54,125 bases of DNA. It comes from an uncultured Lentisphaerales bacterium. GTDB taxonomy: Bacteria > Verrucomicrobiota > Kiritimatiellia > RFP12 > UBA3636. The translations under genes and the position numbers were made by a program. The number at the start of each line of letters is the position of its first letter. The stretch's first letter is position 1. Shown here piece after piece: positions 25,389 to 48,384 of this stretch. The DNA lies in the NCBI GenBank assembly GCA_964405775.1, contig CAYOPG010000004.1, positions 1-54,125 on the forward strand, written 5' to 3'. The notes below the pieces were generated by a model. That model was not told the DNA's origin, ran no database searches, and saw only the letters and a list, made by a program, of their open reading frames with translations.

Positions 25389-25464
25389 TGGTGGGCCCTG
25401 AGGGATTCGAACCCCCAACCAAGGGATTATGAGTCCCCTGCTCTGACCGTTGAGCTAAGGGCCC
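25389..25464 (-). tRNA. tRNA-Ile2 (CAT anticodon, lysidine type)
   Basis: GGGCCCTTAGCTCAACGGTCAGAGCAGGGGACTCATAATCCCTTGGTTGGGGGTTCGAATCCCTCAGGGCCCACCA; cloverleaf, encoded CCA; resembles Ile2 more than Met. Confidence 0.9.
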
Positions 25465-26729: not shown

Positions 26730-26806
<77 letters not shown>

Positions 26807-26889
26807 TTTACCAGGGGAGGGGCGGCGTTGCGCTGAATGTTGCTCACTTTTGCACAGTAAATCAGCGACGGGCCGGGGAGATAATAAAG

Positions 26890-28098
26890 TTGTCAGACTT
26901 TCTGTTTTTCGAGAATGTAACAAAGCGGTTCGGCTCCCTGACGGCCGTTGACAACGTGACACTTGGTGTGTCGAAAGGGGAGTTTTTTTCACTTCTGGGA
27001 CCCAGCGGGTGTGGCAAGACAACCCTTTTGAGGATGCTTGCCGGCTTCGAACAGCCAGATAAAGGGCGAATCTATCTCGATGGGCACGACATAACAGACT
27101 TGTCCCCCAATATGCGGCGAGTCAACACGGTATTCCAGAACTACGCTCTTTTCCCTCATCTCACGGTCCGCGACAACATCGCCTTTGGGCTAAAGATAGC
27201 AAAGCGCTCGAAAGATGAAATCGACCGCGAGGTTGACTTGATGCTCGACCTCATCCAGATGCACGGACACGAGGATAAAAAGCCGGGACAGATCAGCGGC
27301 GGGCAGAAACAACGCGTCGCAATAGCGCGCGCACTTGTCAATCACCCTCAAGTGCTGCTGCTCGACGAACCTCTGGCGGCGCTGGATCTTAAGCTTCGTC
27401 AGCACATGCAAATCGAACTCGACTTGATTCATGACGAAGTGGGCGTGACTTTCCTATATGTCACGCACGATCAGGGCGAGGCAATGTCGTTGAGCGACAG
27501 GATTGCCGTCATGAACTCGGGTCGCATCGAGCAGGTTGACATCCCCGTTAAAATCTACGAGGCTCCCCGCACGTCCTTCGTTGCGGCGTTTATTGGGGAC
27601 ACCAATTTCTTTGACGGAAACCTCTCTTCCATAATTGGCGAAGACTACTGCAAGGTGGAATCAAACGATTTCCCTCCGATTCTCTGCTACAACGACAAAC
27701 ATATACGTCCGGGAAGTCCGGTCCATCTGAGCATACGTCCCGAGAAGATGCGTGTTTCGCACTCTCAGCCGGATAATTCGTCGGGGAAAATAAATATGTA
27801 CCGCACCAAGGTCGAGGACGCGGTCTATCAGGGTTTCCAGACTCGCTACTGGGTGCGCATCGGCGAATACCGCATCTCGATCACACAGGCGCACAGCCGT
27901 TTCCTTCTCGACTTCGAACCGATAAAGTGGGGGGACGAGGTCTGGCTCTCATGGCATGCCGACGATGGCTATATGATGGAACAGTACACGGAGACAGACG
28001 AGAACCTTCTGATGCTGCCGCCGGAAAGCATAGGAGACATGGACGAACCTGTCGCCGAAGAGAAAACCGAGGAGCCAGCAGAGGAAATCGCCCAATGA
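26890..28098 (+). CDS. potA: Polyamine ABC transporter ATP-binding subunit
   Basis: GPSGCGKT, VFQNYALFPH, SGGQKQR, LLLDEP, VTHDQGEA, TOBE-like C-domain; likely TTG start 26890 after GGAG (track start lies in tRNA). Confidence 0.88.
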   Translation: MSDFLFFENVTKRFGSLTAVDNVTLGVSKGEFFSLLGPSGCGKTTLLRMLAGFEQPDKGRIYLDGHDITDLSPNMRRVNTVFQNYALFPHLTVRDNIAFGLKIAKRSKDEIDREVDLMLDLIQMHGHEDKKPGQISGGQKQRVAIARALVNHPQVLLLDEPLAALDLKLRQHMQIELDLIHDEVGVTFLYVTHDQGEAMSLSDRIAVMNSGRIEQVDIPVKIYEAPRTSFVAAFIGDTNFFDGNLSSIIGEDYCKVESNDFPPILCYNDKHIRPGSPVHLSIRPEKMRVSHSQPDNSSGKINMYRTKVEDAVYQGFQTRYWVRIGEYRISITQAHSRFLLDFEPIKWGDEVWLSWHADDGYMMEQYTETDENLLMLPPESIGDMDEPVAEEKTEEPAEEIAQ

Positions 28099-35395: not shown

Positions 35396-37870
35396 TCAGT
35401 GTGGCCTGACGCGTCGTGTGGCGGTAGCCTGCGTCGGGTCTTCTGGCCAGTAGTGTTTTGGGTAGCGTCCGCGTAAGTCTTTGCGGACTTCCGGATATCC
35501 GTTCTTCCAGAAGCTCGCGAGGTCGGATGTGACTTGAACTGGCCGCTGTGCAGGCGATAGAAGTTTTAATAGAATCGGTATGCGTCCCCCAGCGACGCGT
35601 GGCGTTTCCATCATGCCGAAAACTTCCTGGATGCGGACTGATGCCGCGGGTTGATCTCCTGTGTAGTTTATCTTTATGTTTGATCCGCTGGGTACCGTGA
35701 GTTGTGACGGAGCGAGCGAATCTAGGCGCCGCGCCGCTGCTCCCAGCATCGCTTGCAAGGGGTGAACCAGATCGACAGCCGATGCCTGTGCGAGTGTCGT
35801 TTTGCCATTCAGATAAGGTCCGAGCCATTGCTCAAGTGTTGCTGCCAAAGCCTCGTCTGAGACGTCCGGCAGGCCTTCCTCTGGCATAGCCAAAGCAACG
35901 GTTAAGATGCGGGCCTGTAGGTTGCGTGCGGCAGGTGTCCAGTTGAGGCGCTCAATGCTTTCACGGCGTATGCCTCCGCAGAGGCATTTCAGCAGTGCCT
36001 CTGGGTCGGGGTCTTTCAGCGGGCGGTCGCGTACAGGTATTTCGCCGAAGAACTCGCGATTGGTCGCATCTATGCTTTTTGATCTTGAGTTCCATTCCAT
36101 TATCTCCTTGGAATGGAACATGTGTGAGAAGTGGCGCTCAACGTCTGCGCTGGAAAGCGGCGCTGCAAGGCGGATCGTGGCATCGGCATCTTTGTCGTCT
36201 ATGTCGGCGATTGCGATCCAGTCTGTTACGCCGAGGGGATCATTAGCAGGGAGTTTTGCGCCGCGTCCTCCGCTTAGCAGATAGCGTCCGGGATCATCGG
36301 CGTTTTTGCGCCGGTAACCTATTCTGTCCGGGTACGCCCATGCGAGCATGATGCCGATGGATTCGTGGCGGGGTGTGGACTCTGCCACGATCTGTCTGAG
36401 TTGCGATCGCCAAGCTGAGGCGAGGTCGCGAATGCGTTTGCGCACCGGTTTTGGTAGTGTTCCGTTTTCACCTTCCGCGGCGGCAACAAGATGTTCGGCA
36501 TTTGAGGAGATTCGGAAGCCGGAGTTGCCAGCTTCGGAGATAGCGGCGGCAAGTGTGCATGCTGTTTCATCGGCGGCGGAAATCATGGAATGGGCGAGGC
36601 GCGGATGGGCGCCCAGTCTTGTCATGAGTCGGCCGTGGGGTGTTATTGACCCTTGTGAATCCAGTGCGTCTAGTGCACGGAGCAGCTCAACCGCCTGCTT
36701 CCAAGTGTTGGCAGGTGGCGGGGTGAGCCAAGGAAGCGAATCGGGAGTGGAGGAGCCCCAGTCAGCGCATTGCAGGACAACGTCTGCAAGGTCAGCCGTA
36801 AGGATTTCCGGCGGGGAAGAGGGGTCGAGAGCGCGGTCTTCATCCTCCGACCAGATACGGTAGCAGGTTCCCGGACCTAGGCGCCCCGCACGCCCACGTC
36901 GTTGGTCGGCTCTGTCGCGGGTTATGCGGACCGTTTCAAGACGACTCATGCCCGTGGCGTGCGAGAAACGAGAGACGCGCACAGCACCGGAATCGACCAC
37001 GGCGGAGATGCCTTCGATTGTAAGAGACGATTCCGCGATGGAAGTGGCGAGCACTACCTTTCGGCGACCCGGTGGAGATGGAGCCAGTGCTGCATCCTGC
37101 TCCGCTTTTGGCAGGGCGGCATAAAGCGGGGCGATGTCCGTGGCAGAGTCCGCACTCTGCCACAGCGATTCGGCAGTGGCGCGTATTTCGCCTTCGCCGG
37201 GCAGGAAAGCGAGGATTGAACCGGGGTGTTCGCGGAGGGCTCGGCGGACTGTTGCGGCGGTGCGGTCGGAGACGCGTTCTTCGGCGGGGCGTGGAACGAA
37301 TATTGTTTCGACGGGATACATGCGCCCCTCAGCGCTGACGACAGGTGCGCCTCCGTGGGCGAGGTGGCGAGCTACGGCTGTGGCGTCGAGTGTGGCGGAC
37401 ATGACGAGAATGCGCATATCAGGGCGTATTGAGCGCTGGACGTCTAGCGCGAGAGCGAGGCCGAAATCAGCGTTTATCGAGCGCTCGTGGAACTCATCGA
37501 AAATCAGGAGACCTGTGTCGGAGAGTTCGGGATCGGAAAGTATTTGACGGGCGAGGATTCCCTCGGTGAGTACTACGATCTGGGTGTCGCGCGAAAAATT
37601 GCGTTCAAGACGTATGTGGTGCCCCACGGTTTTCCCCGATGGTTCGCCGAGAATATCCGACATGCGCCATGCCGCAGCGCGCGCTGCCATGCGGCGTGGT
37701 TCGAGCATGAGTATGCGTTTGCCCGCGAGCCAAGGTTCTTCCAAGAGTGCTAGCGGAACGACGGTGGTTTTGCCGGAGCCCGGTGGTGCAGTCAGAACGG
37801 CGGAGTTCCCATCGGCAAGTGCGGCTTTCAGGCGCGGGAGCGCGGAGGTGACTGGCAGGTTTGGAAGCAT
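35396..37870 (-). CDS. hrpB: ATP-dependent RNA helicase HrpB
   Basis: APPGSGKTT, EPRRMAAR, DEFHER, MSAT, ATSIAESSLTI, QRRGRAGR, HPRLA, C-terminal LLSPAQRPVQVT.DL.SFW..GY..VRK; ATG 37870 preferred. Confidence 0.95.
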   Translation of the reverse strand: MLPNLPVTSALPRLKAALADGNSAVLTAPPGSGKTTVVPLALLEEPWLAGKRILMLEPRRMAARAAAWRMSDILGEPSGKTVGHHIRLERNFSRDTQIVVLTEGILARQILSDPELSDTGLLIFDEFHERSINADFGLALALDVQRSIRPDMRILVMSATLDATAVARHLAHGGAPVVSAEGRMYPVETIFVPRPAEERVSDRTAATVRRALREHPGSILAFLPGEGEIRATAESLWQSADSATDIAPLYAALPKAEQDAALAPSPPGRRKVVLATSIAESSLTIEGISAVVDSGAVRVSRFSHATGMSRLETVRITRDRADQRRGRAGRLGPGTCYRIWSEDEDRALDPSSPPEILTADLADVVLQCADWGSSTPDSLPWLTPPPANTWKQAVELLRALDALDSQGSITPHGRLMTRLGAHPRLAHSMISAADETACTLAAAISEAGNSGFRISSNAEHLVAAAEGENGTLPKPVRKRIRDLASAWRSQLRQIVAESTPRHESIGIMLAWAYPDRIGYRRKNADDPGRYLLSGGRGAKLPANDPLGVTDWIAIADIDDKDADATIRLAAPLSSADVERHFSHMFHSKEIMEWNSRSKSIDATNREFFGEIPVRDRPLKDPDPEALLKCLCGGIRRESIERLNWTPAARNLQARILTVALAMPEEGLPDVSDEALAATLEQWLGPYLNGKTTLAQASAVDLVHPLQAMLGAAARRLDSLAPSQLTVPSGSNIKINYTGDQPAASVRIQEVFGMMETPRVAGGRIPILLKLLSPAQRPVQVTSDLASFWKNGYPEVRKDLRGRYPKHYWPEDPTQATATRRVRPH

Positions 37871-37994
37871 ATTAGCGCCAATAGATCGCGTTATTATCAT
37901 TTTGTGCCTGAATTGTACCATATCCGGGTTTTTGGCGCTAGCCGAGTGGTTGAACCTAATGCTTGCATTGTTACGGCCAGTTGGTTTACTATAG

Positions 37995-38182
37995 GCCGCA
38001 TAAACCAACCGACAGGTAGGTAGGCCGGAGCCAACGGAAGTCCGTGTAAATCGGACGCGGTGACGCCGCTGTAAGTGATAGTCCGAGGCAATATGCCACG
38101 AGAAGGTGGGGGTCTCTTTTCCCCAGCGATCGGAAGGTGCCAAGGGTGTTATTGTCACGAGCCAGAAGACGAGTTACGGCCA
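37995..38182 (+). ncRNA. Cobalamin (B12) riboswitch
   Basis: CGGAA, T-loop stem GTCCG-TGTAAAT-CGGAC, GCGG-TGACG-CCGC-TGTAA, GTGATA/TGTCAC stem, GCCACGA...TCGGAAGG B12 box, GAGCCAGAAGAC; possible promoter TTGCAT-18-TACTAT at 37963-37992. Confidence 0.88.
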
Positions 38183-38249
38183 ATTCAGGTGTGGATGGGT
38201 GTCCACTCCGCCACCGTATGGTATAAGGTCGTACAAAGAGAGATGATAA

Positions 38250-40199
38250 ATGAACAAATGTTTGCGCGTTTTGAGCGCGGCCGCGATTGCGCTGCCGTGC
38301 TGGCTTGGCTTTGCTCCTGAATTCGCCTCTGCATCAACCGGAAGCTTCACCTTCGACGATATCCACTACTGGGTGGGCGAGGGAACGAACCGGGCCGTGG
38401 TACTAATAGACTACGACTTCCGTGGACGCGCCGCCGGCGTATCGAACTCCCTCGCATACGGTTTCCGCTGGAATGGCGAGATAACGCAACTCGAGGCGTT
38501 GCGCTTGATAGGCGGGGAGGACAAACGCCTCCACTTCTCCACATATGAAAGCTGGGGAAGCACATTGCCGGAAGCCTTCGCCTATGACAGAAAAGGCAAC
38601 GGAGGTGCGTTCGCCCTTTCAGATGGCCTGAAGACCGATCCAGGGGACATAATCGAGAGCTGCAACTCGGATACGGGATGGAACTTCTACTGGGCGACCA
38701 CTGAGTTGACAAACTCGACCACTTTCACGGAAAACTTCCGGTTCATTACAAGGGGGGGAATCGCCTCGGAATATATGATCCCCGATTCTTTTTTAGGGCT
38801 GATGTTCCTACCCTGGGCAACGACTTGGAATGAGAGTATCGGGGAGTGGGACGCGGAATGGAACCCGCTGCCTTACACCTATCCTGAGACAGGCGATTAT
38901 ATAGATTTCATCCCTTCAATGCCTGTGGCAGCGGAGTCGCCATATGGGTTTAGAGTTTTTGGTTTCGAGTCGGACACCAGCGCTTATTTCGCAGGGAATT
39001 ATATCCATCCAGAAGCGGCGGTTGGACGTCCGGCGGCATCAACTCTGCCTAAGGATGCCGATCAATACGACGGGCCCGCCATTCCGTTGACTCCACTCAT
39101 GGGCGCCATGGGCACAAACCAGGTGCTAAGACTCGTCGATATTTATGATGATTTCGGAGACCTAGAAACACGCGGGTGCATCACGATTGAGTTCGACCAT
39201 CCCGTGGTGGATGATCCGAACAACCCGTGGGGTCTTGATTTCATAGTCTTTGGCAATGCCTTCTACCAGGGCAACGCCGGAAGTGAAAACATGACTGGTT
39301 TTGAAAATCCCACGAACGTTATTGTCAGAAAAGTTTCCACGAATAATCCTGAGATCCTCGTCGCCGAGCCGGGGCTTGTGGCGGTGTCGCAGGACAGGGA
39401 AACGTGGTTTACTTCAGACACGTGGTTGCACGCTGACTCTTTCGCTCCGACGCTTGGCTACAAGCTCGACCCTGCAAACGCCAATCCAGCCCTTTTTGCC
39501 GGCAACAAGTGGTGGGGCGCCAAGACCGATCCGACATATCCGGTTCCGCCGTGGGGAGAGGAGTCTATTGCGCCGGGCACAAACCTCGCGCAAATTGCCA
39601 CGTGGTACAACGGATCTGCAGGTGGCGCAGCTTTCGATATTTCAAGTCTTGACCTGCCAGCTACGCACAACGGAAGAAAGTGGTTCAAGTATGTTCGAAT
39701 TACGAACAATGCCAACCCGGACGATGGTAGTTCCTCATGCGAAATCGATGCCGTTGCGGACGTCTATCCCGACACGCCATACGGAGTTTACGCTAAAGAG
39801 CTCTACGCTTGGACTGAGCTGCCGTCGAAAGGAAGAAAAACCGCGCTTGCCGCAAACGGTCGGCCGAACTTTGTGAACTTCGCATTGGGGGAGGACCCTG
39901 CCGCTACACTTGAGATAAGCGACTTCGTCGTACGTGATGGGCGTCTATGGTTCTCTTTCCCTGTCTGGAAGGCGGACTGGAATATCAACGACATGCTTGA
40001 ATCAGGCATAGATTTCAGCGTCCGCGCCAAGAGCAAATTGACGAACGCGGGATCCGGCAACAACGTATTTGGTTTTGCCAGTTTCGAGGGGTTGACCACA
40101 AACTCGGTTGACGGCACATACACCGCGACGATTTCCGTCGACGAGCTGCCGACGGCCCAAAACGCGTTCTTCCGTCTTGGCATTTCGGCTGAAGAGTAG
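38250..40199 (+). CDS. Secreted multi-domain protein under the B12 riboswitch; candidate corrinoid-binding surface protein
   Basis: Sec signal ending ASA; domain 1 FTFDDIHYWVGEG.NRAV; domain 2 ITIEFDHP..D.PNNPWGLDFIVFGNAF...EPGLVAVSQD...GGAAFDISSL..YVRI..EIDAV; C-terminal FFRL-type end. Confidence 0.7.
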   Translation: MNKCLRVLSAAAIALPCWLGFAPEFASASTGSFTFDDIHYWVGEGTNRAVVLIDYDFRGRAAGVSNSLAYGFRWNGEITQLEALRLIGGEDKRLHFSTYESWGSTLPEAFAYDRKGNGGAFALSDGLKTDPGDIIESCNSDTGWNFYWATTELTNSTTFTENFRFITRGGIASEYMIPDSFLGLMFLPWATTWNESIGEWDAEWNPLPYTYPETGDYIDFIPSMPVAAESPYGFRVFGFESDTSAYFAGNYIHPEAAVGRPAASTLPKDADQYDGPAIPLTPLMGAMGTNQVLRLVDIYDDFGDLETRGCITIEFDHPVVDDPNNPWGLDFIVFGNAFYQGNAGSENMTGFENPTNVIVRKVSTNNPEILVAEPGLVAVSQDRETWFTSDTWLHADSFAPTLGYKLDPANANPALFAGNKWWGAKTDPTYPVPPWGEESIAPGTNLAQIATWYNGSAGGAAFDISSLDLPATHNGRKWFKYVRITNNANPDDGSSSCEIDAVADVYPDTPYGVYAKELYAWTELPSKGRKTALAANGRPNFVNFALGEDPAATLEISDFVVRDGRLWFSFPVWKADWNINDMLESGIDFSVRAKSKLTNAGSGNNVFGFASFEGLTTNSVDGTYTATISVDELPTAQNAFFRLGISAEE

Positions 40200-40204
40200 A
40201 ATGA

Positions 40205-40990
40205 GTGGTGAAAACGGTGAGAAAACCTTTCAGACAGCCAGGAGACATAATTGACCTCTCAAGCGCGGGGTTCACTCTGTTAGAGCTGTTTGTGGTTATA
40301 GCGATAGCGGGAATTCTTATGACACTTACCGTCGGCGCAGTCGGCAAAGCGAGAACTGCCTCCCAACGCGTTAAATGCGCGTCCAATCTCCGCAACATGG
40401 TTGTTGCCGCCACCGCGTATGCGGAAGACCACAACGGACGCTTCCCGTGGGCGTCGCGCAAGGTCAAGGGCTACCAATCTTGGTGCTGGGACTTTGTTAT
40501 ACCCTCTGGCGGCAAACCCCAGCCCGGAGTGATGTGGAGCGGCTACGGGATCAATTCCGTGTTGCAATGCCCGTCGTTCATAGACGGCAGAGCGAACTGG
40601 GAAGGTGACCCTTACACCGGCTACAATTACAACTCCAGCTTCATAGGGAAGGTGGAGGGGGATCCGGCCAAGCGGCAAGCGCCGGCTACGCTCGCCCAGA
40701 TAGAAGATCCTGCGCGGACGGCAATGTTTGGCGACGGCCAATACGGCGGAGGCGCCAACAAATTCATGCGCTCCCCAAAAGCGAACAGAGACAACGACTT
40801 CTCGGGTAAGTATGTGCGAGAATCTGGCACACAGGGGTTCCGCCACGGCGGCAAGACCAACGTGGCATTCGCCGACGGTCATGTAGAGGCGCTGTCGCAA
40901 CCATACCAATATGGCGGAGCCGAGGGGTTCACGGCACCCGATTGCGGTTTCATTTCTGCCGACAACAGCCTCTACTCGCTGGATAAATAA
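40205..40990 (+). CDS. Prepilin-type N-terminal cleavage protein with H-X9-DG C-terminal motif
   Basis: G/FTLLELFVVIAI class III signal (Gly-1, Phe+1, Glu+5); RHGGKTNVAFADGHV. Confidence 0.92.
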   Translation: MVKTVRKPFRQPGDIIDLSSAGFTLLELFVVIAIAGILMTLTVGAVGKARTASQRVKCASNLRNMVVAATAYAEDHNGRFPWASRKVKGYQSWCWDFVIPSGGKPQPGVMWSGYGINSVLQCPSFIDGRANWEGDPYTGYNYNSSFIGKVEGDPAKRQAPATLAQIEDPARTAMFGDGQYGGGANKFMRSPKANRDNDFSGKYVRESGTQGFRHGGKTNVAFADGHVEALSQPYQYGGAEGFTAPDCGFISADNSLYSLDK

Positions 40991-41021: not shown

Positions 41022-42356
41022 TTAATTCATGGGTTCTGACGTCCATCTGCGCTTGATATACCAAGCGGTCAGACCCCCAAAAACAGCGGCTAAAAGTGCA
41101 GTTGTTAACAGGTAACTCCTGGCACCACCTGCGATTCCATGGTTTTTCACCGCGAATGCGGTTACGAGCCATCCGGGGATGATTACGGCTATGATGCCCA
41201 CCAGACAGACTGTCTGTCGCCGCATGATAATTAGGACGGATTGGAGTATGTAATATACTGCCAGCAGGGCGCCCCCGGCTATGAGGATGCACAGAGTTCC
41301 CCTGTGGTGCGTCAGATCAATTCCATAGAACAGCGTTAGGAGCTGACTTCCAAAAGCATAGGAGAAGAAAAGCGTGGGCAGCGAGAAAGCCACCACCCAA
41401 AGGATTTGGATGTAAATCTGTCTGAGGAATCCGCGCCTGTCGCCATTTTTATAGAGCCAGCTCATACTGGTCAGAGCGGGGCGCAGCACGAATCCCGATA
41501 GTAGGCTGACCAGAAATGCCAGCATGAACAGAGCGTTGTATTCGGCCATCTTGCTTTCGTCGAGATGTCGGTCAATCGCGTACTTGGACATGTTGTTGAC
41601 GTACATGAACAGGAACGCGTTCAGAGCAAGAGGCAGACATGAGATGAGAAGCGCGCGCTGCGCACTCCAGTTGGATATCCTGACATTGCGTATGAACGAC
41701 CGGATCAGAACGCCGTCGGACAATATAAAAAGACCCCAGTAAATCAGCACCATCAACGCTAATGAGACAAGCATGTCCTTTGTGAACCACAGCGCCACGC
41801 AGAACAGGATCATAGGAAGAAACGTTTTATAGAACACGCCCTTCGAGGCTATATCAAGCCTCCCAAACTGCTGGTACCGGCCTTCCAGAACGTCCGAAAA
41901 AGACTCTCCAGATCTCAGCACCATGAGTAGAATGAGTGCGGCAGCCTTGTCATTCCATCCGTCGCCGAACGCGATCAGCCCGACAGCGGCTGCCATCATT
42001 AATGCGACAGTGATGATTCTTGACACGAAATAGTCGTCAAACGAGAAGACCTCGTCGACGTCCGACACCTGATATGTGCGCATTTGAAAAAGCCCAATGG
42101 TCACCAGTTGCTGGGATATCGCCATTGCTATGCTGAACACGCCTCCCCAATAAGGCCCCCGGTCTCCAAGAATGCGCAATATGGAAACAAGCAGGATGAA
42201 CGAGCTGCCGCAGAAGCATCCGCCTGAGAAAGCGGTCCAGAAATAGGTTCGCGCTTGAAGGTTGCCTGGTTTTTCAAGTTTGAAAAAGCGCCGGACCAAA
42301 TTCCCCGCCCAAGTGGGGTTCCCCATTGGAAGTGGGAGACGAGAGTTGTTGTCCAT
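41022..42356 (-). CDS. Wzx-type polysaccharide flippase (MOP family)
   Basis: About 12 TM segments; FQMRTYQVSDV, SKYAIDRHL, YNALFM. Confidence 0.8.
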   Translation of the reverse strand: MDNNSRLPLPMGNPTWAGNLVRRFFKLEKPGNLQARTYFWTAFSGGCFCGSSFILLVSILRILGDRGPYWGGVFSIAMAISQQLVTIGLFQMRTYQVSDVDEVFSFDDYFVSRIITVALMMAAAVGLIAFGDGWNDKAAALILLMVLRSGESFSDVLEGRYQQFGRLDIASKGVFYKTFLPMILFCVALWFTKDMLVSLALMVLIYWGLFILSDGVLIRSFIRNVRISNWSAQRALLISCLPLALNAFLFMYVNNMSKYAIDRHLDESKMAEYNALFMLAFLVSLLSGFVLRPALTSMSWLYKNGDRRGFLRQIYIQILWVVAFSLPTLFFSYAFGSQLLTLFYGIDLTHHRGTLCILIAGGALLAVYYILQSVLIIMRRQTVCLVGIIAVIIPGWLVTAFAVKNHGIAGGARSYLLTTALLAAVFGGLTAWYIKRRWTSEPMN

Positions 42357-42369
42357 TCTTTTGGGTTGC

Positions 42370-43635
42370 CTAGTTGTACTTTGAAGGGTAAAGCCACTTT
42401 TCGCGGATCAAGGCATATCGTTCGTATTCCGGCGAGTATTTGAACCAGGGGAATCGTGGAAATTTGAAGACTTTGCCACGGTGGTCGGAAATGAGGTAGT
42501 CGGGGTTGTATTCACCGTTCAAGACGCGTATGCAAGCTGTCTTGGTTTCCGAGGCCGTTCCCTCGACCATTTTTAGCGCCGCTAGGAATGTGCGTCCGCT
42601 GCCCGATTCGTCGTCCACCAGCAGTATCTTTTTGCCTCGTATCGAGTCCGGGCAAGATCCACCGACCACCGGCTCGTTCCCGTACAAGGCGTCACGCAAA
42701 TAACAGCCGCCGATTATGTCGTCTGTGTCCAGATTCCCGATGCGTAGCTGCCGGTGTCTGATACTTATCGTTTCGAACGGCAGATCCAGCGCCTTGGCAA
42801 CATGAAAAGCCGGGAATAGACCGCCGCTTGCTATGCCGACCACCATGTCTGGTTTGTATCCCGATGTTTTTACATTCTCTGCGAGCTTGCGGCAAAGGTC
42901 TTCGACTTCAGCCAACGAGAAGAAGCTCCCGCCGGTAAGGCGGAAAATGGTGCGTTGCATTGCGGTGAAGCACCGTTCGGGCAGGTTAAGCGGGGAGTAC
43001 TTGCCCCAGATGGATTTGATGCGCAGGCAACCCCGGTAAAAATATGAATCGCGCTTTGCGCGTATGTTTTCCAGCTTCCAGGGGAAGTTCTCGCGCGTGG
43101 GAAGTTCGGCGAGTTTGAAAGTGGTTCTCCCGATTTCCTCCGGGAAGTGCGCGTCGGCACCGTAGAGCGCCAGTTTGCCGTGGCGTGCGCAGTCTTTGGT
43201 GGCGCGGCGGTCGTGCCGCGCGGAAAAAGTGCGGGCGTTGAAAACTTCCACGGCGTCGGTCTTCGAAAATGCGGTCTCGTATATATCAGCCTTGAGCGAA
43301 GAGGGGCGCCATGCGTCGTACGGATGTGGAAGAACCACGATCCCTCCCTGTTCCCGAATCGCCGCCATCGTCTGTTCAAGACCCTTGCCCGGCTCGATCT
43401 TTTCCTTTAGAAAGAGACCTATAACTTCGCCGGAGGTTGTCATTATCTCTTCTCCTACCACGGTGTGGAATTCAGGAAAGCGTTCGCGAAACCGGAGCGC
43501 CCCCTCAATGGTGTTATGGTCGGTAATGAAGAGTGTGTCTATTCCGGCGGCATTGGCTCGCCGCGCAAGCTCTTCGAGCGTTATGCGCCCGTCGCCGGAA
43601 TAAATCGTGTGGACATGGAAACAACATTTCTTCAT
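42370..43635 (-). CDS. PHP phosphoesterase domain fused to type I phosphoribosyltransferase domain
   Basis: FHVHT, TDHN, GEE, PHPYD, EVFNAR, DAH (PHP); VVGIASGG, ILLVDDESGSGRT (PRPP loop); ATG 43635 preferred. Confidence 0.85.
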   Translation of the reverse strand: MKKCCFHVHTIYSGDGRITLEELARRANAAGIDTLFITDHNTIEGALRFRERFPEFHTVVGEEIMTTSGEVIGLFLKEKIEPGKGLEQTMAAIREQGGIVVLPHPYDAWRPSSLKADIYETAFSKTDAVEVFNARTFSARHDRRATKDCARHGKLALYGADAHFPEEIGRTTFKLAELPTRENFPWKLENIRAKRDSYFYRGCLRIKSIWGKYSPLNLPERCFTAMQRTIFRLTGGSFFSLAEVEDLCRKLAENVKTSGYKPDMVVGIASGGLFPAFHVAKALDLPFETISIRHRQLRIGNLDTDDIIGGCYLRDALYGNEPVVGGSCPDSIRGKKILLVDDESGSGRTFLAALKMVEGTASETKTACIRVLNGEYNPDYLISDHRGKVFKFPRFPWFKYSPEYERYALIREKWLYPSKYN

Positions 43636-43658
43636 AATTTTATTGCGCTTTTGATCGT

Positions 43659-43688
43659 ATTTTAGCTTTATCCGCATTGACATGTCAA
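43659..43688 (-). promoter_or_regulatory. Putative promoter for PHP-PRTase/flippase unit
   Basis: Minus strand TTGACA (43688-43683), 18 nt, TAAAAT (43664-43659). Confidence 0.5.
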
Positions 43689-43743
43689 TTGATTGGGCAA
43701 TTTGTTATACTACTTGCTTAGATTCTTTGGTAAACTCTGAAAA

Positions 43744-44931
43744 ATGAAGACATTTGATACAGACATGCATGAAAAAACTGAAGCAGATGTAATACTAAGC
43801 GTTGTTTTGCCGTGCCTCAATGAGGCAAAGACGCTTGAAAAGGCCATCGGGACGGCAGCCGAGCTCATTTCATCAACAGGGATGAAAGGCGAAATCGTTT
43901 TATCCGACAACGGCTCGACCGACGGCTCTCGTGAAATAGCCGAAAGAGCGGGAGCCCGTGTGGTATCTGCAGAACGAAAAGGTTATGGGTTTGCCCTTAT
44001 GTCCGGCATCAGAGCCGCGCGTGGCAGCATAATAGTCATGGGCGACGCTGACGCTACGTACGATTTCCGTGAAGCCAAGCAGCTTGTCGAAGCGGTCGAC
44101 GCTGGTGCCGATCTCGCCATGGGTAGCCGGCTTCGTGGCAACATTGAGGAAGGCGCCATGCCTTACCTCCATCGTCATCTTGGTACTCCCGTGCTCACAT
44201 GGCTTATACGCCGCTTCTTTGGCTTGAGCATAACGGATTGCAATTGCGGCATGCGGGCGTTCAGCAAAAAAGCGTTCGAGAGGATGGACCTGATTTCGGG
44301 AGGCATGGAATTCGCATCTGAAATGCTGATCAAGGCGGCGTTGTGCGGCATGAAGGTTGTTGAATACCCCATATCGCTTCTGAAGGACACGCGCGACCGC
44401 GCGCCGCACCTCCATACATGGCGCGACGGCTGGCGCCACCTGCGTTTCATCCTTATTTTTGCACCGCACGTCACATTCTTCATTCCGGGAATGGTACTTT
44501 TCATACTGTTTGGTATTGAGACGCTTCTGCTCTCTTTTGGAGTTGTCACTGTGGGAGCTTTTTTGTTCGACTACCATCACCTTTTCTACTCTGTGCCGTT
44601 GTTCATAATAGGATACCAGATGCTTTGGTTCGCAAGGCTCTCTGAGCAATTCCGCAACTTCTCGGGGTATGACACGGTACAAAGACACAGGTACGGCAAG
44701 TTCAATATGGAACTATGGCTCTTGGTTGGCGTGGCTATGGCAATTGGAGGGCTGGCGATTTTCGGCATAGTTTTCGCTTCATGGATAGCCTCGGGTCACG
44801 GGGAGTTATTCGCTATCAGGAGGGGTGTTGCCGGGCTCGCCTTATTGCTCCTGGGGGTCACGACAATTATGAACTCCTTTATGATGAGCATGCTGGAGCT
44901 TAATCTGGATCGTGGGGCAGGCGGTAAATGA
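43744..44931 (+). CDS. GT2 glycosyltransferase, polyprenyl-phosphate glycosyltransferase-like, with C-terminal TMs
   Basis: PCLNE, DNGSTDGS, MGDADATYD, GSR, GMEFASEM, TWRDGWRHLRF. Confidence 0.85.
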   Translation: MKTFDTDMHEKTEADVILSVVLPCLNEAKTLEKAIGTAAELISSTGMKGEIVLSDNGSTDGSREIAERAGARVVSAERKGYGFALMSGIRAARGSIIVMGDADATYDFREAKQLVEAVDAGADLAMGSRLRGNIEEGAMPYLHRHLGTPVLTWLIRRFFGLSITDCNCGMRAFSKKAFERMDLISGGMEFASEMLIKAALCGMKVVEYPISLLKDTRDRAPHLHTWRDGWRHLRFILIFAPHVTFFIPGMVLFILFGIETLLLSFGVVTVGAFLFDYHHLFYSVPLFIIGYQMLWFARLSEQFRNFSGYDTVQRHRYGKFNMELWLLVGVAMAIGGLAIFGIVFASWIASGHGELFAIRRGVAGLALLLLGVTTIMNSFMMSMLELNLDRGAGGK

Positions 44932-45884
44932 CCGCTGAGCGCTATCCCACGATATCGGTCGTAATGCCAACGTACAACGGCGAGAGCCATCTCCGCGCCG
45001 CCCTCGATTCGTTGGAGTCTCAGAAGCCCTCCGGGGTCCCGTTCGAAGTTTTGGTGTCCGATGATGGTTCCTCGGACGCTACTCTTCATATTTTGAAGGA
45101 AGCCACGGAGCGCTTGCCGTTACGCGTTATCGACGGGCCGCGCAAACGCAACTGGGTTGCCTCCACCAACGCGCTCCTCCGCGAGGCGCGTGGCGAATAT
45201 GTTACCATGCTTCATCAGGATGACATTTATTTTCCTGAGCGGTTCGCAGAACTGGCCTCAACGGCGGCGGCATATCCAAACATTTCTGTCTTCTCGCACC
45301 CGACGCGTTTTATCAACTCGGCGGGGCGTGCCGTCGGCACATGGAAGCCACCCATGCCAACCGGCAAGCGACTGTCGCCGCACATGTGGTTTCCGCCACT
45401 GATGGTTCAGAATAATTTCGCGGTGCCAGCGATGATGTTCCGCCGCCGCCTATCCGACGAACTTGGGGATATGGACGAGACGCTGCCTTACACCGCAGAT
45501 TGGGAATACTGGCTCCGTTTTGCCGCCTCCGAGAGAATATTCATACTGCCGAAGCCGCTTGCCGGTTTCCGCATTCATGGCGCCTCTCAGACCGTGGCTT
45601 TCGCCGAAAAAGCCGACGAATACGAACGGAATCTGCGCGAAGTTGTGGTGCGCTCCGAACGTACGGCTTCGAGGTTAAACCTGAAAAAGCGCTACATTGA
45701 AATGGCTCGGTTTGGCGTCGATGTTAATCTGTGGCTCGCTGCCAAGGCCTCCGGCAGGAGCTTCCCTGTTTCGAAAGTGCTCGGAGGTGTTTTCGACGTC
45801 GGGCTTCCCGGCGCATTTTCGTATATAAGTTTATCCCGCATGATTCCCCGTTCTCTCGCTCGTTTGCGCGCGGGGAGGTCGTGA
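44928..45884 (+). CDS. GT2 glycosyltransferase (soluble)
   Basis: SVVMPTYN, DDGSSD, LHQDD, DWEYWLR. Confidence 0.88.
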   Translation: MTAERYPTISVVMPTYNGESHLRAALDSLESQKPSGVPFEVLVSDDGSSDATLHILKEATERLPLRVIDGPRKRNWVASTNALLREARGEYVTMLHQDDIYFPERFAELASTAAAYPNISVFSHPTRFINSAGRAVGTWKPPMPTGKRLSPHMWFPPLMVQNNFAVPAMMFRRRLSDELGDMDETLPYTADWEYWLRFAASERIFILPKPLAGFRIHGASQTVAFAEKADEYERNLREVVVRSERTASRLNLKKRYIEMARFGVDVNLWLAAKASGRSFPVSKVLGGVFDVGLPGAFSYISLSRMIPRSLARLRAGRS

Positions 45885-45960: not shown

Positions 45961-48384
45961 ATGAACGGAAATGTGGAACGCGCGAAAAAAACCGTCGCGT
46001 GTATAGTGCCTGTGCTGTCCGTGGTAATAGCTGCGTTGCTGCTCCAGTTCCCGTTGGCCACCATGGTGCCGCTGAGCAATCACGAAGTATTGTATGCTTG
46101 GCAATCGGATCTGGTGCGCAGATTTTTCCCGGTGTTCGTATTGACTGTTGTTGCAATCTCTGTTTGCCTCTGGATTTTGAGCGGACGGGTGACACGCGCC
46201 TCACAGCCAGGTCGAGCACAACACGTTGCGAACAGCCTGCGTCCGCTTGCATGGCTCCCTCTTTGCGTGGTGCTCAGCCAGTGCTCCGTGTGGCTCGGCG
46301 CCACCGTTTCGGGGCTGATAATCGCCTTCGGTCCCGCGCTCATCCTCGCGCTGTGCGCCGAAAGGCTGGTTGGCGATTCAATCCGGCAAGACAAGTCGGC
46401 CGGTGTGCGCTACTGGGCGGTGCACTTTATTGTTTATTCTGCGTTCATCCTGGGCGTTGGCCTGTATTTCAATAATGAGGTGGGAGAGCAGATGGGCGAT
46501 GAAAAGCACTACATGATCATAGCTCAGAGCCTGTTCGAAGATGGCGACATGGATTTGGCGAGAGAGATGAAGGATTTTATTCCCTCCGCCCACCCTGACC
46601 GCCGTCAAATGCTAAACTACTCGCATCTGCGCGAGAACAAAACAGGCCAGCTGTACAGCTACCATGCGTTCGGACTCCCCATTCTCGCTTTGCCTTTTTG
46701 GTTTACGGGTTTTTTCGGGCGTCAGCTGGTGCTTGCCCTGATTGCCGGGTTCACCATTGTCGGCTGCGGAGCCGCGTGCCATGCTGCCGGGGCTTCGCGC
46801 CGGGCATCGGCCATCGTGGCTTGGGGGTTAGGCCTCACGTTTGCAGGCGCCGTGAATGCCATCCGTTTCCTGCCTGAAACTCTGGGTTGTGGACTGGTCG
46901 TTTGGGCGTTCTGGAGTATCCTCGCCCAAAAAAAACGCCCTTGGGTCTCCTCAATCGTCGCCGCAGTATGCTGCGGCTACTTGCCATACGCGCATACCCG
47001 TTTCGCTCCCGTGAGCCTTATGTTGGCGTTATTCTTTGGGCTTGAAGGACTCTTCGGCATGAGGTTGGAAAAAATGCGCGTCAAGGTTGCACGTCTGACG
47101 GTCTTTTCGTTGATTTACGCCATCTGCGGTTTTACCCTGCTTTGGTTTCACAGCTGGATGTTTTCCGGCTCTGGAGCATACGAATACGACAAAATTCTGT
47201 TTTCGTACCCGAAGGCCATGTGGGCCGTTATAGTGGAGCACCGCGGCTTGTTCAGCGTGATCACACCGCTTGTGTGGTACCTTGCCGCCGCGCCGCATGT
47301 GATAATCACGGAGCGCCAGTACCGCCGCCATGGCTTGGAGGCGCTTGCGGTTGTGCTGGTTGTCCTCGCTACTTCGTGTTCGAACTCGGCAGCGCTGGGC
47401 GGACGTTGCATACCGGGCCGCTATTTCTTAACGGCGGTCCCGCTTCTGCTCCCGTCTGCAGCGCTAGCGCTTTCAAAATGCCGATCTTCGGCTCGTTTCT
47501 GGTATTACTCCCTGTCGGCAGTTTCCACGCTCATCCTTTTCGCGGCACTCGTGCTAGTCAAACGCGGCAACTTTTTCTCTGTTCTGCCGCTAGACAGCCT
47601 GCGTGGCTATGTGGGCTTCCATCTGATATGGCAGCCCTTGTCTTCGACGTTACACTCAGTTTCCCCGGAGGCATTCACGTACACAACGGCATACGTACTG
47701 TTTCTGATCGCAGTGTCGTTTCTGTTAATGATCATACACTTGAATGGTGCAATTCTCGCCGTATCGACTATCATGCTACTTGGAGCGGCACTGGTTTCCG
47801 GTGCCAAGGTGAATGCCACTGAAAACGTAGAGCGTGATAGAATACTGGGCAGAATGACAGTATATTGGGGAAGCTTGCAAAAGGTCGGCGACTCGGGAGG
47901 TACAATTTTCGAAACACTCGGCATTGTGGAAAAACTCGGGAATCGAAATCCTTTTTACTTGCTTTCACGAGACGTGGAGGGGCTTGGCCCTGGAGGCCGA
48001 ATCAAAGTGGCTGACATCCCTCCCAACGACTGGGATGGGCGCGGCTACAGTTGGAAGGGTCTGCATACCCAAATCCGCCATAACGTTGACTCTACGATTG
48101 CCATAAGGGTCATAGGACAGACCTTGTCGGGCTCCGCTGTCTTCGCCGTGCGTCAGGGTGCGCTCACGTTGGAAGACGGCGTGAGGTGCGAACCTGGCAA
48201 AATCGACTTCACTTGGATTGTGACGACTCGGCGAGGCCGCGGCTGGGTTAATCCTGTAGTTCGGATAGAGGGTGAACACGCAGCCGTGAGAATCGATCAC
48301 GTATACGTGGTGCCGTACTCCGACCCCATGGGCAAGGGAGGGCTTCCGCTAGATCACGCCTCCACTATTCGTGATCTGCGCTGA
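45961..48384 (+). CDS. Large polytopic membrane protein, probable GT-C fold glycosyltransferase
   Basis: Many TMs; GDEKHY..IAQSL.EDGD.DL first-loop motif, PET, RY motifs; soluble C-terminal domain. Confidence 0.6.
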   Translation: MNGNVERAKKTVACIVPVLSVVIAALLLQFPLATMVPLSNHEVLYAWQSDLVRRFFPVFVLTVVAISVCLWILSGRVTRASQPGRAQHVANSLRPLAWLPLCVVLSQCSVWLGATVSGLIIAFGPALILALCAERLVGDSIRQDKSAGVRYWAVHFIVYSAFILGVGLYFNNEVGEQMGDEKHYMIIAQSLFEDGDMDLAREMKDFIPSAHPDRRQMLNYSHLRENKTGQLYSYHAFGLPILALPFWFTGFFGRQLVLALIAGFTIVGCGAACHAAGASRRASAIVAWGLGLTFAGAVNAIRFLPETLGCGLVVWAFWSILAQKKRPWVSSIVAAVCCGYLPYAHTRFAPVSLMLALFFGLEGLFGMRLEKMRVKVARLTVFSLIYAICGFTLLWFHSWMFSGSGAYEYDKILFSYPKAMWAVIVEHRGLFSVITPLVWYLAAAPHVIITERQYRRHGLEALAVVLVVLATSCSNSAALGGRCIPGRYFLTAVPLLLPSAALALSKCRSSARFWYYSLSAVSTLILFAALVLVKRGNFFSVLPLDSLRGYVGFHLIWQPLSSTLHSVSPEAFTYTTAYVLFLIAVSFLLMIIHLNGAILAVSTIMLLGAALVSGAKVNATENVERDRILGRMTVYWGSLQKVGDSGGTIFETLGIVEKLGNRNPFYLLSRDVEGLGPGGRIKVADIPPNDWDGRGYSWKGLHTQIRHNVDSTIAIRVIGQTLSGSAVFAVRQGALTLEDGVRCEPGKIDFTWIVTTRRGRGWVNPVVRIEGEHAAVRIDHVYVVPYSDPMGKGGLPLDHASTIRDLR

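Follow-up and report, generated by a model that had tools for sequence, protein, structure and literature searches.

A stretch of 54,125 nucleotides (nt) from contig CAYOPG010000004.1 of an uncultured Lentisphaerales bacterium, referred to below as the window, carries a cobalamin riboswitch followed by only two genes: gene A, which encodes a large secreted protein, and gene B, which encodes a prepilin-like protein (pseudopilin) with an H-X9-DG motif. Riboswitch, gene A family, and gene-B-type pseudopilin stay together as a triad in Lentisphaerae, Kiritimatiellia, and Planctomycetota, and the arrangement recurs far beyond chance. A high-confidence prediction gives gene A a module that resembles the beta-domain of transcobalamin, and the genomic context makes a role in corrinoid acquisition likely. 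On balance, the locus is best read as a B12-repressed, corrinoid-scavenging cassette that would act on the surface of the cell or in its outer envelope, ahead of a BtuFCD-type importer and with delivery by a filament, a reading held with modest confidence. The cassette is undescribed as far as the searchable literature shows: no paper was found that describes it, that links DUF1559 proteins or pseudopilins to a cobalamin riboswitch, or that gives the H-X9-DG/DUF1559 family a function.

Only three matches in the whole window exceed the Rfam gathering score, two tRNAs and one cobalamin riboswitch. The latter (RF00174, 38036-38170, plus strand) scores 46.1 bits in an Rfam scan (gathering score 31.5, E 1.9e-8), an Infernal-type check that bears out the strong cobalamin riboswitch described in an earlier note on this DNA, which had been made from the letters alone. 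A covariance model, R1, was built from eight orthologous leaders and searched against all fetched loci; the window aptamer matches it over the full length at 167.9 bits, and comparison with the orthologs reveals compensatory changes in 19 of the 34 predicted aptamer pairs. The aptamer ends 69 nt before the ATG of gene A, which is preceded by a purine-rich ribosome-binding site (AAGAGAG, 8 nt 5' of the ATG). The stop codon of gene A and the GTG start of gene B are separated by 5 nt, the 3' end of gene A includes a GAAGAG ribosome-binding site, and judging by these signals the two genes are translationally coupled across the gap. The organisation given in the earlier note, a 649-aa secreted protein and a class III-signal H-X9-DG protein 5 nt apart with a convergent gene closing the unit, is present at the coordinates collected in Table 1. 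Its statement that importer genes are missing also stands: annotation of the open reading frames (ORFs) and a check of the neighbours showed no btuB, btuFCD, or energy-coupling factor (ECF) genes in or adjoining the window cassette. The ATP-binding cassette (ABC) transporters near it are PotA/TOBE- and Opp-type, not Btu-type.

Recurrence was assessed by a scan of one genome per GTDB species, which gave 477 gene A relatives. The best 80 loci, from distinct species genomes, were fetched and are numbered with the prefix L; they come from Lentisphaerae, Kiritimatiellia, metagenome-assembled genomes labelled 'Verrucomicrobiota', and Planctomycetota (among them Phycisphaerae, Sedimentisphaerales, and Pirellulales). 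In eight of the first ten loci, Rfam places RF00174 immediately upstream of the gene A homolog. Model R1 gives 63 matches below E 0.01, located in 60 loci and all upstream on the gene A strand, and Rfam adds L054 (RF00174) and L032 (AdoCbl-II, RF01689). A same-strand upstream B12 riboswitch is present in 62 of about 76 assessable loci, and aptamers also lie upstream of gene A homologs in L081-L083, L085, and L086. In L032, the AdoCbl-II riboswitch (2375-2449) lies 5' of the gene A homolog at a distance of 3.5 kb, and additional N_methyl pseudopilin genes occupy the interval. Downstream pseudopilins were found by a hidden Markov model (HMM) search of all ORFs in the loci. Of about 71 loci with enough downstream sequence, 66 have a same-strand pseudopilin gene directly 3' of gene A, and riboswitch and pseudopilin occur together in 55 loci. 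The earlier note had staked its proposal on recurrence of the cassette across the Planctomycetes-Verrucomicrobia-Chlamydiae (PVC) bacteria, and such recurrence across PVC phyla is observed. In most loci no more than about 200 nt separate the gene A stop from the beginning of the prepilin motif; in L041, L051, and L053 the distance is about 1.3 kb, with a second gene A paralog in between. The search was also run in the reciprocal direction from three gene B homologs (45-50% identity, long contigs). The cassette was recovered in all three cases, with riboswitches of 69, 61, and 47 bits and a central-domain protein encoded immediately upstream of the gene B homolog.

The gene A product appears to be exported, as its N-terminus can be read as a Sec signal peptide with a type I site (A-S-A/S). 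An L-P-C stretch does not constitute a canonical lipobox, and residues 1-23 have low pLDDT (predicted local distance difference test) values in the structural model. Neither Pfam nor NCBIfam matches gene A. For 40 homologs, too, Pfam gives no match at E up to 1, and profile searching of the PDB returned nothing at E up to 10. A word-indexed protein search gave 115 homologs, none of which carry a Pfam domain. The AlphaFold2 model, computed with 40 homologs, has a pLDDT of 86.7 and a predicted TM-score (pTM) of 0.87. With the full-length model, Foldseek finds no global match, only local ones to major histocompatibility complex (MHC) immunoglobulin-like domains, muskelin, and transcobalamin (probability 1.00). 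The N-domain alone (residues 28-192) was modelled at a pLDDT of 90.7, and the top 19 PDB matches of this model are exclusively transcobalamin, intrinsic factor, haptocorrin, and 3u7z. Relative to the isolated human transcobalamin beta-domain in its apo (5no0) and cyanocobalamin-bound (5np4) structures, the target-normalised TM-scores are 0.77 and 0.76, with a root-mean-square deviation of 2.7-3.0 Å and a probability of 1.00, and the next match falls to a probability of 0.04. Sequence identity to the cobalamin carriers is 7-14%. The idea in the earlier note that the secreted protein binds B12 is thus matched by a predicted fold of the appropriate kind.

Because the Foldseek E-values of the N-domain are modest, independent support was sought. 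An N-domain profile search retrieved 1363 cluster representatives among 1.84 billion, many of them with 2-7 tandem repeats. In one such protein (P0238), an N-domain repeat (profile positions 5-86 at residues 1163-1238) runs into a DUF4430 match (PF14478, residues 1248-1279, 34.9 against a gathering score of 23.8). This contiguity suggests homology of the N-domain to DUF4430, the family in which the transcobalamin beta-domain fold is included, by a bridge, not by direct Pfam membership. In two others (P0243 and P0296), the N-domain repeats are joined in one protein with a DUF5074 propeller whose match is PDB 9S6C (E 3e-14), which is BtuK1 with bound cyanocobalamin (2026 review, PMC13616437). 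On the strength of the models and of this bridge, the most fitting description of the N-domain is that of a divergent DUF4430/transcobalamin-beta-like module. The proteins P0238, P0243, P0296, and P0283 are giants of Bacteroidota type, with a Por_Secre_tail (sorting by the type IX secretion system) and 2-7 N-domain copies; some also have a BtuK1-like DUF5074 propeller and Big_2 repeats. From this architecture they are probable multivalent corrinoid traps.

The central domain of gene A has the invariant motifs FDHxVxDDPxNPxGxDFxVFGN, SAGG, and EIDAVADV. It shows a weak likeness to discoidin/jelly-roll domains (muskelin 8ttq_B, Foldseek probability 0.96), and one family member matches F5_F8_type_C at E 0.0037. 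Comparison among phyla indicates that the binder is modular. In Planctomycetota, tblastn matches span only residues ~225-507 of gene A, and a separate protein of 164-280 aa is encoded between the riboswitch and the central-domain gene, consisting of a signal peptide, an N-domain homolog (E 4e-13, 1e-9, and 7e-7), and a PEP-CTERM tail. The C-terminal domain seen in gene A varies or is missing in these homologs, whose central-domain proteins end instead in PEP-CTERM or dockerin tails; Dockerin_1 is found on many homologs. The upstream paralogs in L033, L041, and L042 contain one, two, or three copies of the N-domain. In L044 (7667-8116) and L045 (7082-7531), two cobalamin riboswitches in tandem, spaced by about 300 nt, are followed by the gene for an 887-aa protein that combines a PQQ_2 beta-propeller, a copy of the central domain, and Flg_new_2, with the gene A homolog and the pseudopilin coming next. 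An exosortase gene (EpsH) lies farther downstream in L044. As judged from these loci, the invariant pair is central domain plus pseudopilin, and the N-domain head is swappable, being fused, separate, repeated, or replaced by a propeller. A constant pair with an exchangeable head is the pattern expected if the central domain adapts the binder to the pseudopilin or its machine, and physical or functional coupling of the two is probable.

Gene B has the cleavage motif G22/FTLLE27, followed by LFVVIAIAGILMTL. Its scores exceed the cut-offs of TIGR02532 (20.7 bits against 16.3), TIGR04294 (H-X9-DG; 24.7 against 19), and PF07596 (DUF1559; 29.6 against 23.3, spanning only profile positions 2-43 of 268), and PF07963 is narrowly under its cut-off (18.7 against 21.2). 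By these profiles, gene B falls within the prepilin and H-X9-DG/DUF1559 families, a pilin class of which we know of no characterised member. Its PDB relatives are limited to the N-terminal pilin helix (PilA-N geopilin helices). Among 1220 gene B homologs, several sources apply the label GspG. The prepilin site residues F23, L25, and E27 (E+5) are conserved in at least 90% of members. The same level of conservation across phyla is found in the gene-A-linked subfamily for C58, C122, TGYNYN (138-143), FGDG (175-178), N185, K186, M188, R189, H214, D224, G225, and H226. With an HMM of this subfamily, pseudopilins adjacent to gene A score 262-357 bits, whereas only five others were found in 1.15 Mb of flanking sequence, at 27-151 bits. 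This gap implies that gene B belongs to a dedicated subfamily and not to the generic H-X9-DG pool, in agreement with the dedicated pseudopilin that the earlier note had envisaged. One generic example is the second H-X9-DG pseudopilin of L083 (895-1686), which lies between genes for a flavin adenine dinucleotide (FAD) oxidoreductase and a GH42 glycosidase; other H-X9-DG paralogs likewise sit beside enzymes or secreted proteins.

The genes that share an operon with the pair in related loci point to corrinoid uptake. BtuF/C/D-type genes (Peripla_BP_2, FecCD, and ABC_tran, at times fused) lie 3' of the pseudopilin in L008, L011, L019, L021, L047, and L048. A seventh locus, L085, on a 4.5-Mb contig, has a riboswitch of 45.3 bits and a pseudopilin of 342 bits. 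Its order is riboswitch, PEP-CTERM protein, N-domain protein, central-domain protein, and pseudopilin, then CobT, CobS, CobC, BtuF, BtuD, BtuC, BtuR, CobU, and CobQ. By its gene content, L085 is a complete cobamide salvage and import operon with the cassette at the usual place of btuB. B12 operons of the E. coli and Bacteroides types include btuB; none of the seven BtuFCD-bearing operons contains an outer-membrane receptor gene. The uptake context suggested by the earlier note is thereby found in related operons, where the pair is directly upstream of BtuFCD and cobamide salvage genes and BtuB is missing. The possibility that gene B replaces BtuF was rejected, as gene B and BtuF coexist in the same operons.

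Machine genes are linked to the cassette in fewer loci. In L005 (10017-15054), the B12-linked pseudopilin is followed by genes for a PilN-domain protein (466 aa), a 269-aa protein, and a 944-aa secretin, with a 128-nt gap after the pseudopilin and 4-nt overlaps thereafter. Extra N_methyl/T2SSG pseudopilins are under the same riboswitch in L012 and L032. For the machine like a type II secretion system (T2SS) or type IV pilus that the earlier note had invoked, these three loci are favourable, whereas the window cassette has no assembly genes beside it. Among Kiritimatiellia and Phycisphaerae, the gene directly after the pseudopilin encodes ComEC (PF03772) in L028 (13059-14696) and L035 (4263-5900), or a ComF-like protein (DZR_2 plus Pribosyltran) in L066 (11952-12737), L071, L079, and L080. 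A link to competence-type uptake was not adopted on this basis, since each occurs in few related genomes and the genes may be mere neighbours. In L066, L071, and L079 the ComF-like gene is followed by conserved proteins of ~760 aa and 570-620 aa that have no Pfam match; in Phycisphaerae and Sedimentisphaerales these lie ~1.8-6.7 kb 3' of the gene A homolog.

Taken as a scavenging cassette with filament delivery, the locus would work as follows. Low intracellular cobamide would lead the riboswitch to permit expression, gene A would be exported by Sec, and its N-domain would capture corrinoid while the central domain docks onto gene B. Gene B, once processed by prepilin peptidase, would join a type IV pilus or T2SS-like pseudopilus as a specialised minor pilin, so that the filament presents the binder outside the cell. 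Retraction through a secretin would then carry the loaded binder, or its ligand, to the periplasm, and BtuF-BtuCD would finish import. In competence pili, filament retraction brings cargo inward. The step in which a pilus, in place of a TonB-dependent receptor, takes corrinoid across the outer membrane is put forward tentatively.

Several observations weigh against this reading or parts of it. Genes for a pilus ATPase, platform protein, or secretin are not found beside the window cassette, and among the loci examined secretin and PilN genes are contiguous with the cassette in L005 only. The absence of BtuB from the riboswitch units, which in itself favours the reading, comes from a phmmer search of every ORF in L001-L083 and in the window. 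This search used E. coli BtuB as its single query, is of limited sensitivity, and covered the loci only, so that a riboswitch-controlled btuB may lie elsewhere in the genomes. The sole match, outside the riboswitch unit, is a 269-aa Plug fragment in L042 (3667-4476). It corresponds to the last third of the Plug domain of a TonB-dependent receptor, lies ~2 kb upstream of the riboswitch, and precedes the gene for an AAA_14/DUF4143 ATPase; in appearance it is a degraded receptor gene. The Foldseek E-values of the N-domain range from 6e-3 to 0.25, with none below 1e-3, and neither the window gene A nor its 40 homologs match PF14478 (DUF4430) at E up to 1. Approximately 14 assessable loci are without a detectable riboswitch. 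As to the expression platform, a terminator scan found no intrinsic terminator in the window leader, and the leader fold is no better than that of shuffled sequence. Without a terminator, riboswitch control of gene A is likely to be translational or Rho-dependent.

The alternative that survives best is one of display or secretion, in which the pseudopilin is a cargo-specific adaptor or anchor that imports nothing. A T2SS-like pseudopilus would export gene A through the outer membrane, or a short surface filament would tether it; gene A would be a cobalophore or surface binder comparable to BtuG, BtuH, BtuJ, and BtuK, and corrinoid would enter by a TonB-dependent receptor or porin encoded elsewhere. 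Pseudopilins are classically components of secretion, which accords with the GspG label given to gene B homologs, and the PEP-CTERM or dockerin tails on both parts of the planctomycetal binder fit static display. The degraded Plug fragment of L042 implies that TonB receptors exist in at least one lineage. Relays of surface binders that feed BtuB are established in Bacteroides (PMC13616437). Against display stand the seven importer operons that have no outer-membrane receptor gene, and there is no known T2SS with a cargo-dedicated, co-regulated pseudopilin. We regard this account as possible rather than probable. The genomic data fit delivery and display alike, and delivery is only slightly preferred, on account of those seven operons and the precedent of retraction in competence pili.

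It is improbable that the pair acts within the periplasm, with gene B remaining anchored in the inner membrane and a periplasmic gene A serving as a corrinoid chaperone to BtuF/BtuCD. Unassembled pilins do reside in the inner membrane, the Pfam name of DUF1559 is SBP_bac_10, and the window gene A has no obvious surface anchor. However, operons with the pair also encode a Peripla_BP_2 BtuF, which would make a second periplasmic binder redundant, and the PEP-CTERM and dockerin tails of the planctomycetal homologs are typical of surface proteins. The strictly conserved prepilin cleavage motif with E+5 and the secretin, PilN-domain, and extra pseudopilin genes in L005, L012, and L032 also speak against a periplasmic chaperone. 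Much less probable still is a function other than uptake, such as sequestration of corrinoid that starves competitors or an unrelated B12-repressed process, for example adhesion. B12 riboswitches occasionally govern genes beyond transport and synthesis, and no transporter adjoins the window cassette; against this, related loci have BtuFCD, CobT/S/C/U, BtuR, and CobQ in the same operon, the predicted fold is transcobalamin-like, and N-domains are fused with BtuK-like propellers. Chance adjacency of one H-X9-DG paralog to a riboswitch-controlled gene, suggested by the great number of such genes in PVC genomes and by the L083 paralog beside unrelated enzymes, is refuted by the comparative data: the pair is kept in nearly all assessable loci of three phyla, its pseudopilin forms a distinct high-scoring subfamily, reciprocal sampling recovered it each time, and gene B is the sole H-X9-DG/prepilin ORF in the 54-kb window (motif regex), so that its position is not a product of a local pile-up of paralogs.

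With the favoured reading of a scavenging cassette, the locus can be compared to known systems. It resembles E. coli-type btuB/btuFCD in having RF00174 in the leader, in the Peripla_BP_2, FecCD, and ABC_tran genes within the unit of the seven related loci, and in the expected repression by B12. It differs in that a binder and a pseudopilin, with no TonB-dependent receptor gene, form the head of the operon, and in that transporter genes are wholly missing from the window cassette. The surface B12-binding lipoproteins of Bacteroides are BtuG, BtuH, BtuJ (DUF4465), and BtuK (PMC6143338, PMC8941943, PMC13398666, PMC13616437). Like these, gene A is predicted to be a riboswitch-regulated extracellular corrinoid binder, accessory to a core importer, and its architectures are modular, duplicated, and fused, including the fusion of its N-domain to BtuK-like propellers in Bacteroidota. 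Unlike them, gene A has a predicted transcobalamin beta/DUF4430-like fold and not a propeller, DUF4465 jelly roll, or BtuH domain; it has neither a Pfam match to the BtuG/H/J/K families nor a canonical lipobox, and its partner, in PVC phyla, is a pseudopilin and not BtuB. With transcobalamin, intrinsic factor, haptocorrin, and the bacterial DUF4430 protein 3u7z, gene A shares the predicted fold of residues 28-192, which corresponds to their beta-domain. The beta-domain of transcobalamin contacts the nucleotide face of cobalamin and can bind cobalamin by itself (PDB 5np4 title). In contrast to these carriers, gene A is without an alpha6/alpha6 alpha-domain, is fused to an unrelated beta-sandwich, and is encoded in a bacterial operon.

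The pairing of a class III-signal pilin gene with a gene for a large secreted binding protein is reminiscent of the minor-pilin and tip-protein modules of type IV pili (PilY1/PilC), of the DNA-binding pilins of competence, and of T2SS, as is the continuation of L005 into PilN-domain and secretin genes. Here, however, the ligand would be a 1.3-kDa vitamin, gene A has no homology to PilY1, and assembly genes lie outside the cassette. Pili-like fibres of planctomycetes bind dextran, which reaches the periplasm, and a role in uptake has been proposed (Boedeker et al. 2017, PMC5394234); the molecular players of this fibre-associated uptake have been described as unknown (PMC12673574). Both cases concern a PVC bacterium and an association, for the cassette a proposed one, of pili-like fibres with a substrate. 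They differ in that the planctomycete work is microscopy without assigned genes, whereas the present cassette is a gene set with a predicted ligand, known from genes alone.

The remaining features of the window are listed in Table 1 after those of the cassette. As listed, the divergent HrpB helicase ORF overruns the riboswitch, but this overlap is an artefact of ORF extension, given that TIGR01970 matches only from residue 101 onwards, which puts the real start near 37858. The PotA-like ORF overlaps the second tRNA, and its true start is therefore farther downstream. Two GT2 glycosyltransferases also lie downstream of the cassette, and the region 41022-45884 looks like a surface-glycan locus.

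Table 1. Features of the cassette and of its surroundings in the 54-kb window (positions counted from the first letter of the window).
Feature	Coordinates	Strand	Description
Cobalamin riboswitch aptamer	38023-38181	+	RF00174 core match at 38036-38170; ends extended by covariance model from orthologs
Leader between aptamer and start codon	38182-38249	+	Hairpin ~38189-38217; ribosome-binding site AAGAGAG
Gene A	38250-40199	+	ORF, 649 aa; secreted, three domains, candidate corrinoid binder
Signal peptide of gene A, aa 1-29	38250-38336	+	MNKCLRVLSAAAIALPCWLGFAPEFASAS; read from sequence, ends ...FASA then S
N-domain of gene A, aa 28-192	38331-38825	+	Predicted transcobalamin/intrinsic factor/haptocorrin beta-domain fold, divergent DUF4430; predicted corrinoid-binding module
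Central beta-sandwich of gene A, aa ~205-505	38862-39764	+	Best-conserved portion of the family
C-terminal domain of gene A, aa 506-649	39765-40196	+	Helical linker, then beta-sandwich
Gene B	40205-40990	+	ORF, 261 aa; dedicated H-X9-DG/DUF1559 pseudopilin
Class III (prepilin) signal and hydrophobic alpha-1 helix of gene B	40268-40339	+	Cleavage G22/F23-T-L-L-E27
H-X9-DG motif of gene B	40844-40879	+	H214 GGKTNVAFA D224 G225; TIGR04294, regex
Convergent membrane-protein gene	41022-42356	-	444 aa, multi-pass; ends the two-gene unit; without Pfam match
tRNA gene	25392-25464	-
tRNA gene	26730-26803	+
PotA-like ABC ATPase plus TOBE	26758-28098		ORF
HrpB helicase	35396-38158	-	ORF, divergent, upstream of cassette
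PHP-domain plus phosphoribosyltransferase fusion	42370-43683	-	3' of cassette
807-aa ORF	45961-48384		Without Pfam match

Overall, the cassette appears to be a widespread means of B12 acquisition whose parts are unlike any characterised uptake system, with a gene A relative in at least 477 species-level genomes. It gives the H-X9-DG/DUF1559 family of Planctomycetes, Lentisphaerae, Kiritimatiellia, and Verrucomicrobia its first ligand-linked, regulon-anchored context. As the models suggest, it also introduces a bacterial transcobalamin-beta-like family of probable corrinoid binders, which would widen the catalogue of B12 scavengers beyond BtuG, BtuH, BtuJ, and BtuK. Many carriers are Kiritimatiellia and Lentisphaerae of rumen and gut, and the cassette thus has a bearing on cobamide competition in those microbiomes. 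In its boldest form, which we advance as a speculation, PVC bacteria could import cobamides without a TonB-dependent receptor by means of a transcobalamin-like binder on an H-X9-DG minor pilin that is retracted via a secretin, and by extension the paralogs of this pilin could be cargo-specific adaptors. If so, the hundreds of H-X9-DG/DUF1559 paralogs in each PVC genome would be adaptors of a general pilus-based machine for nutrient capture and uptake, and fibre-associated uptake in planctomycetes would gain a molecular basis. The cassette offers an entry point into TonB-independent vitamin uptake and into what the H-X9-DG/DUF1559 proteins do, one of the largest uncharacterised families in the PVC superphylum, and with a small ligand and a module of two or three genes, the uptake of large solutes via surface fibres in PVC bacteria becomes directly testable.

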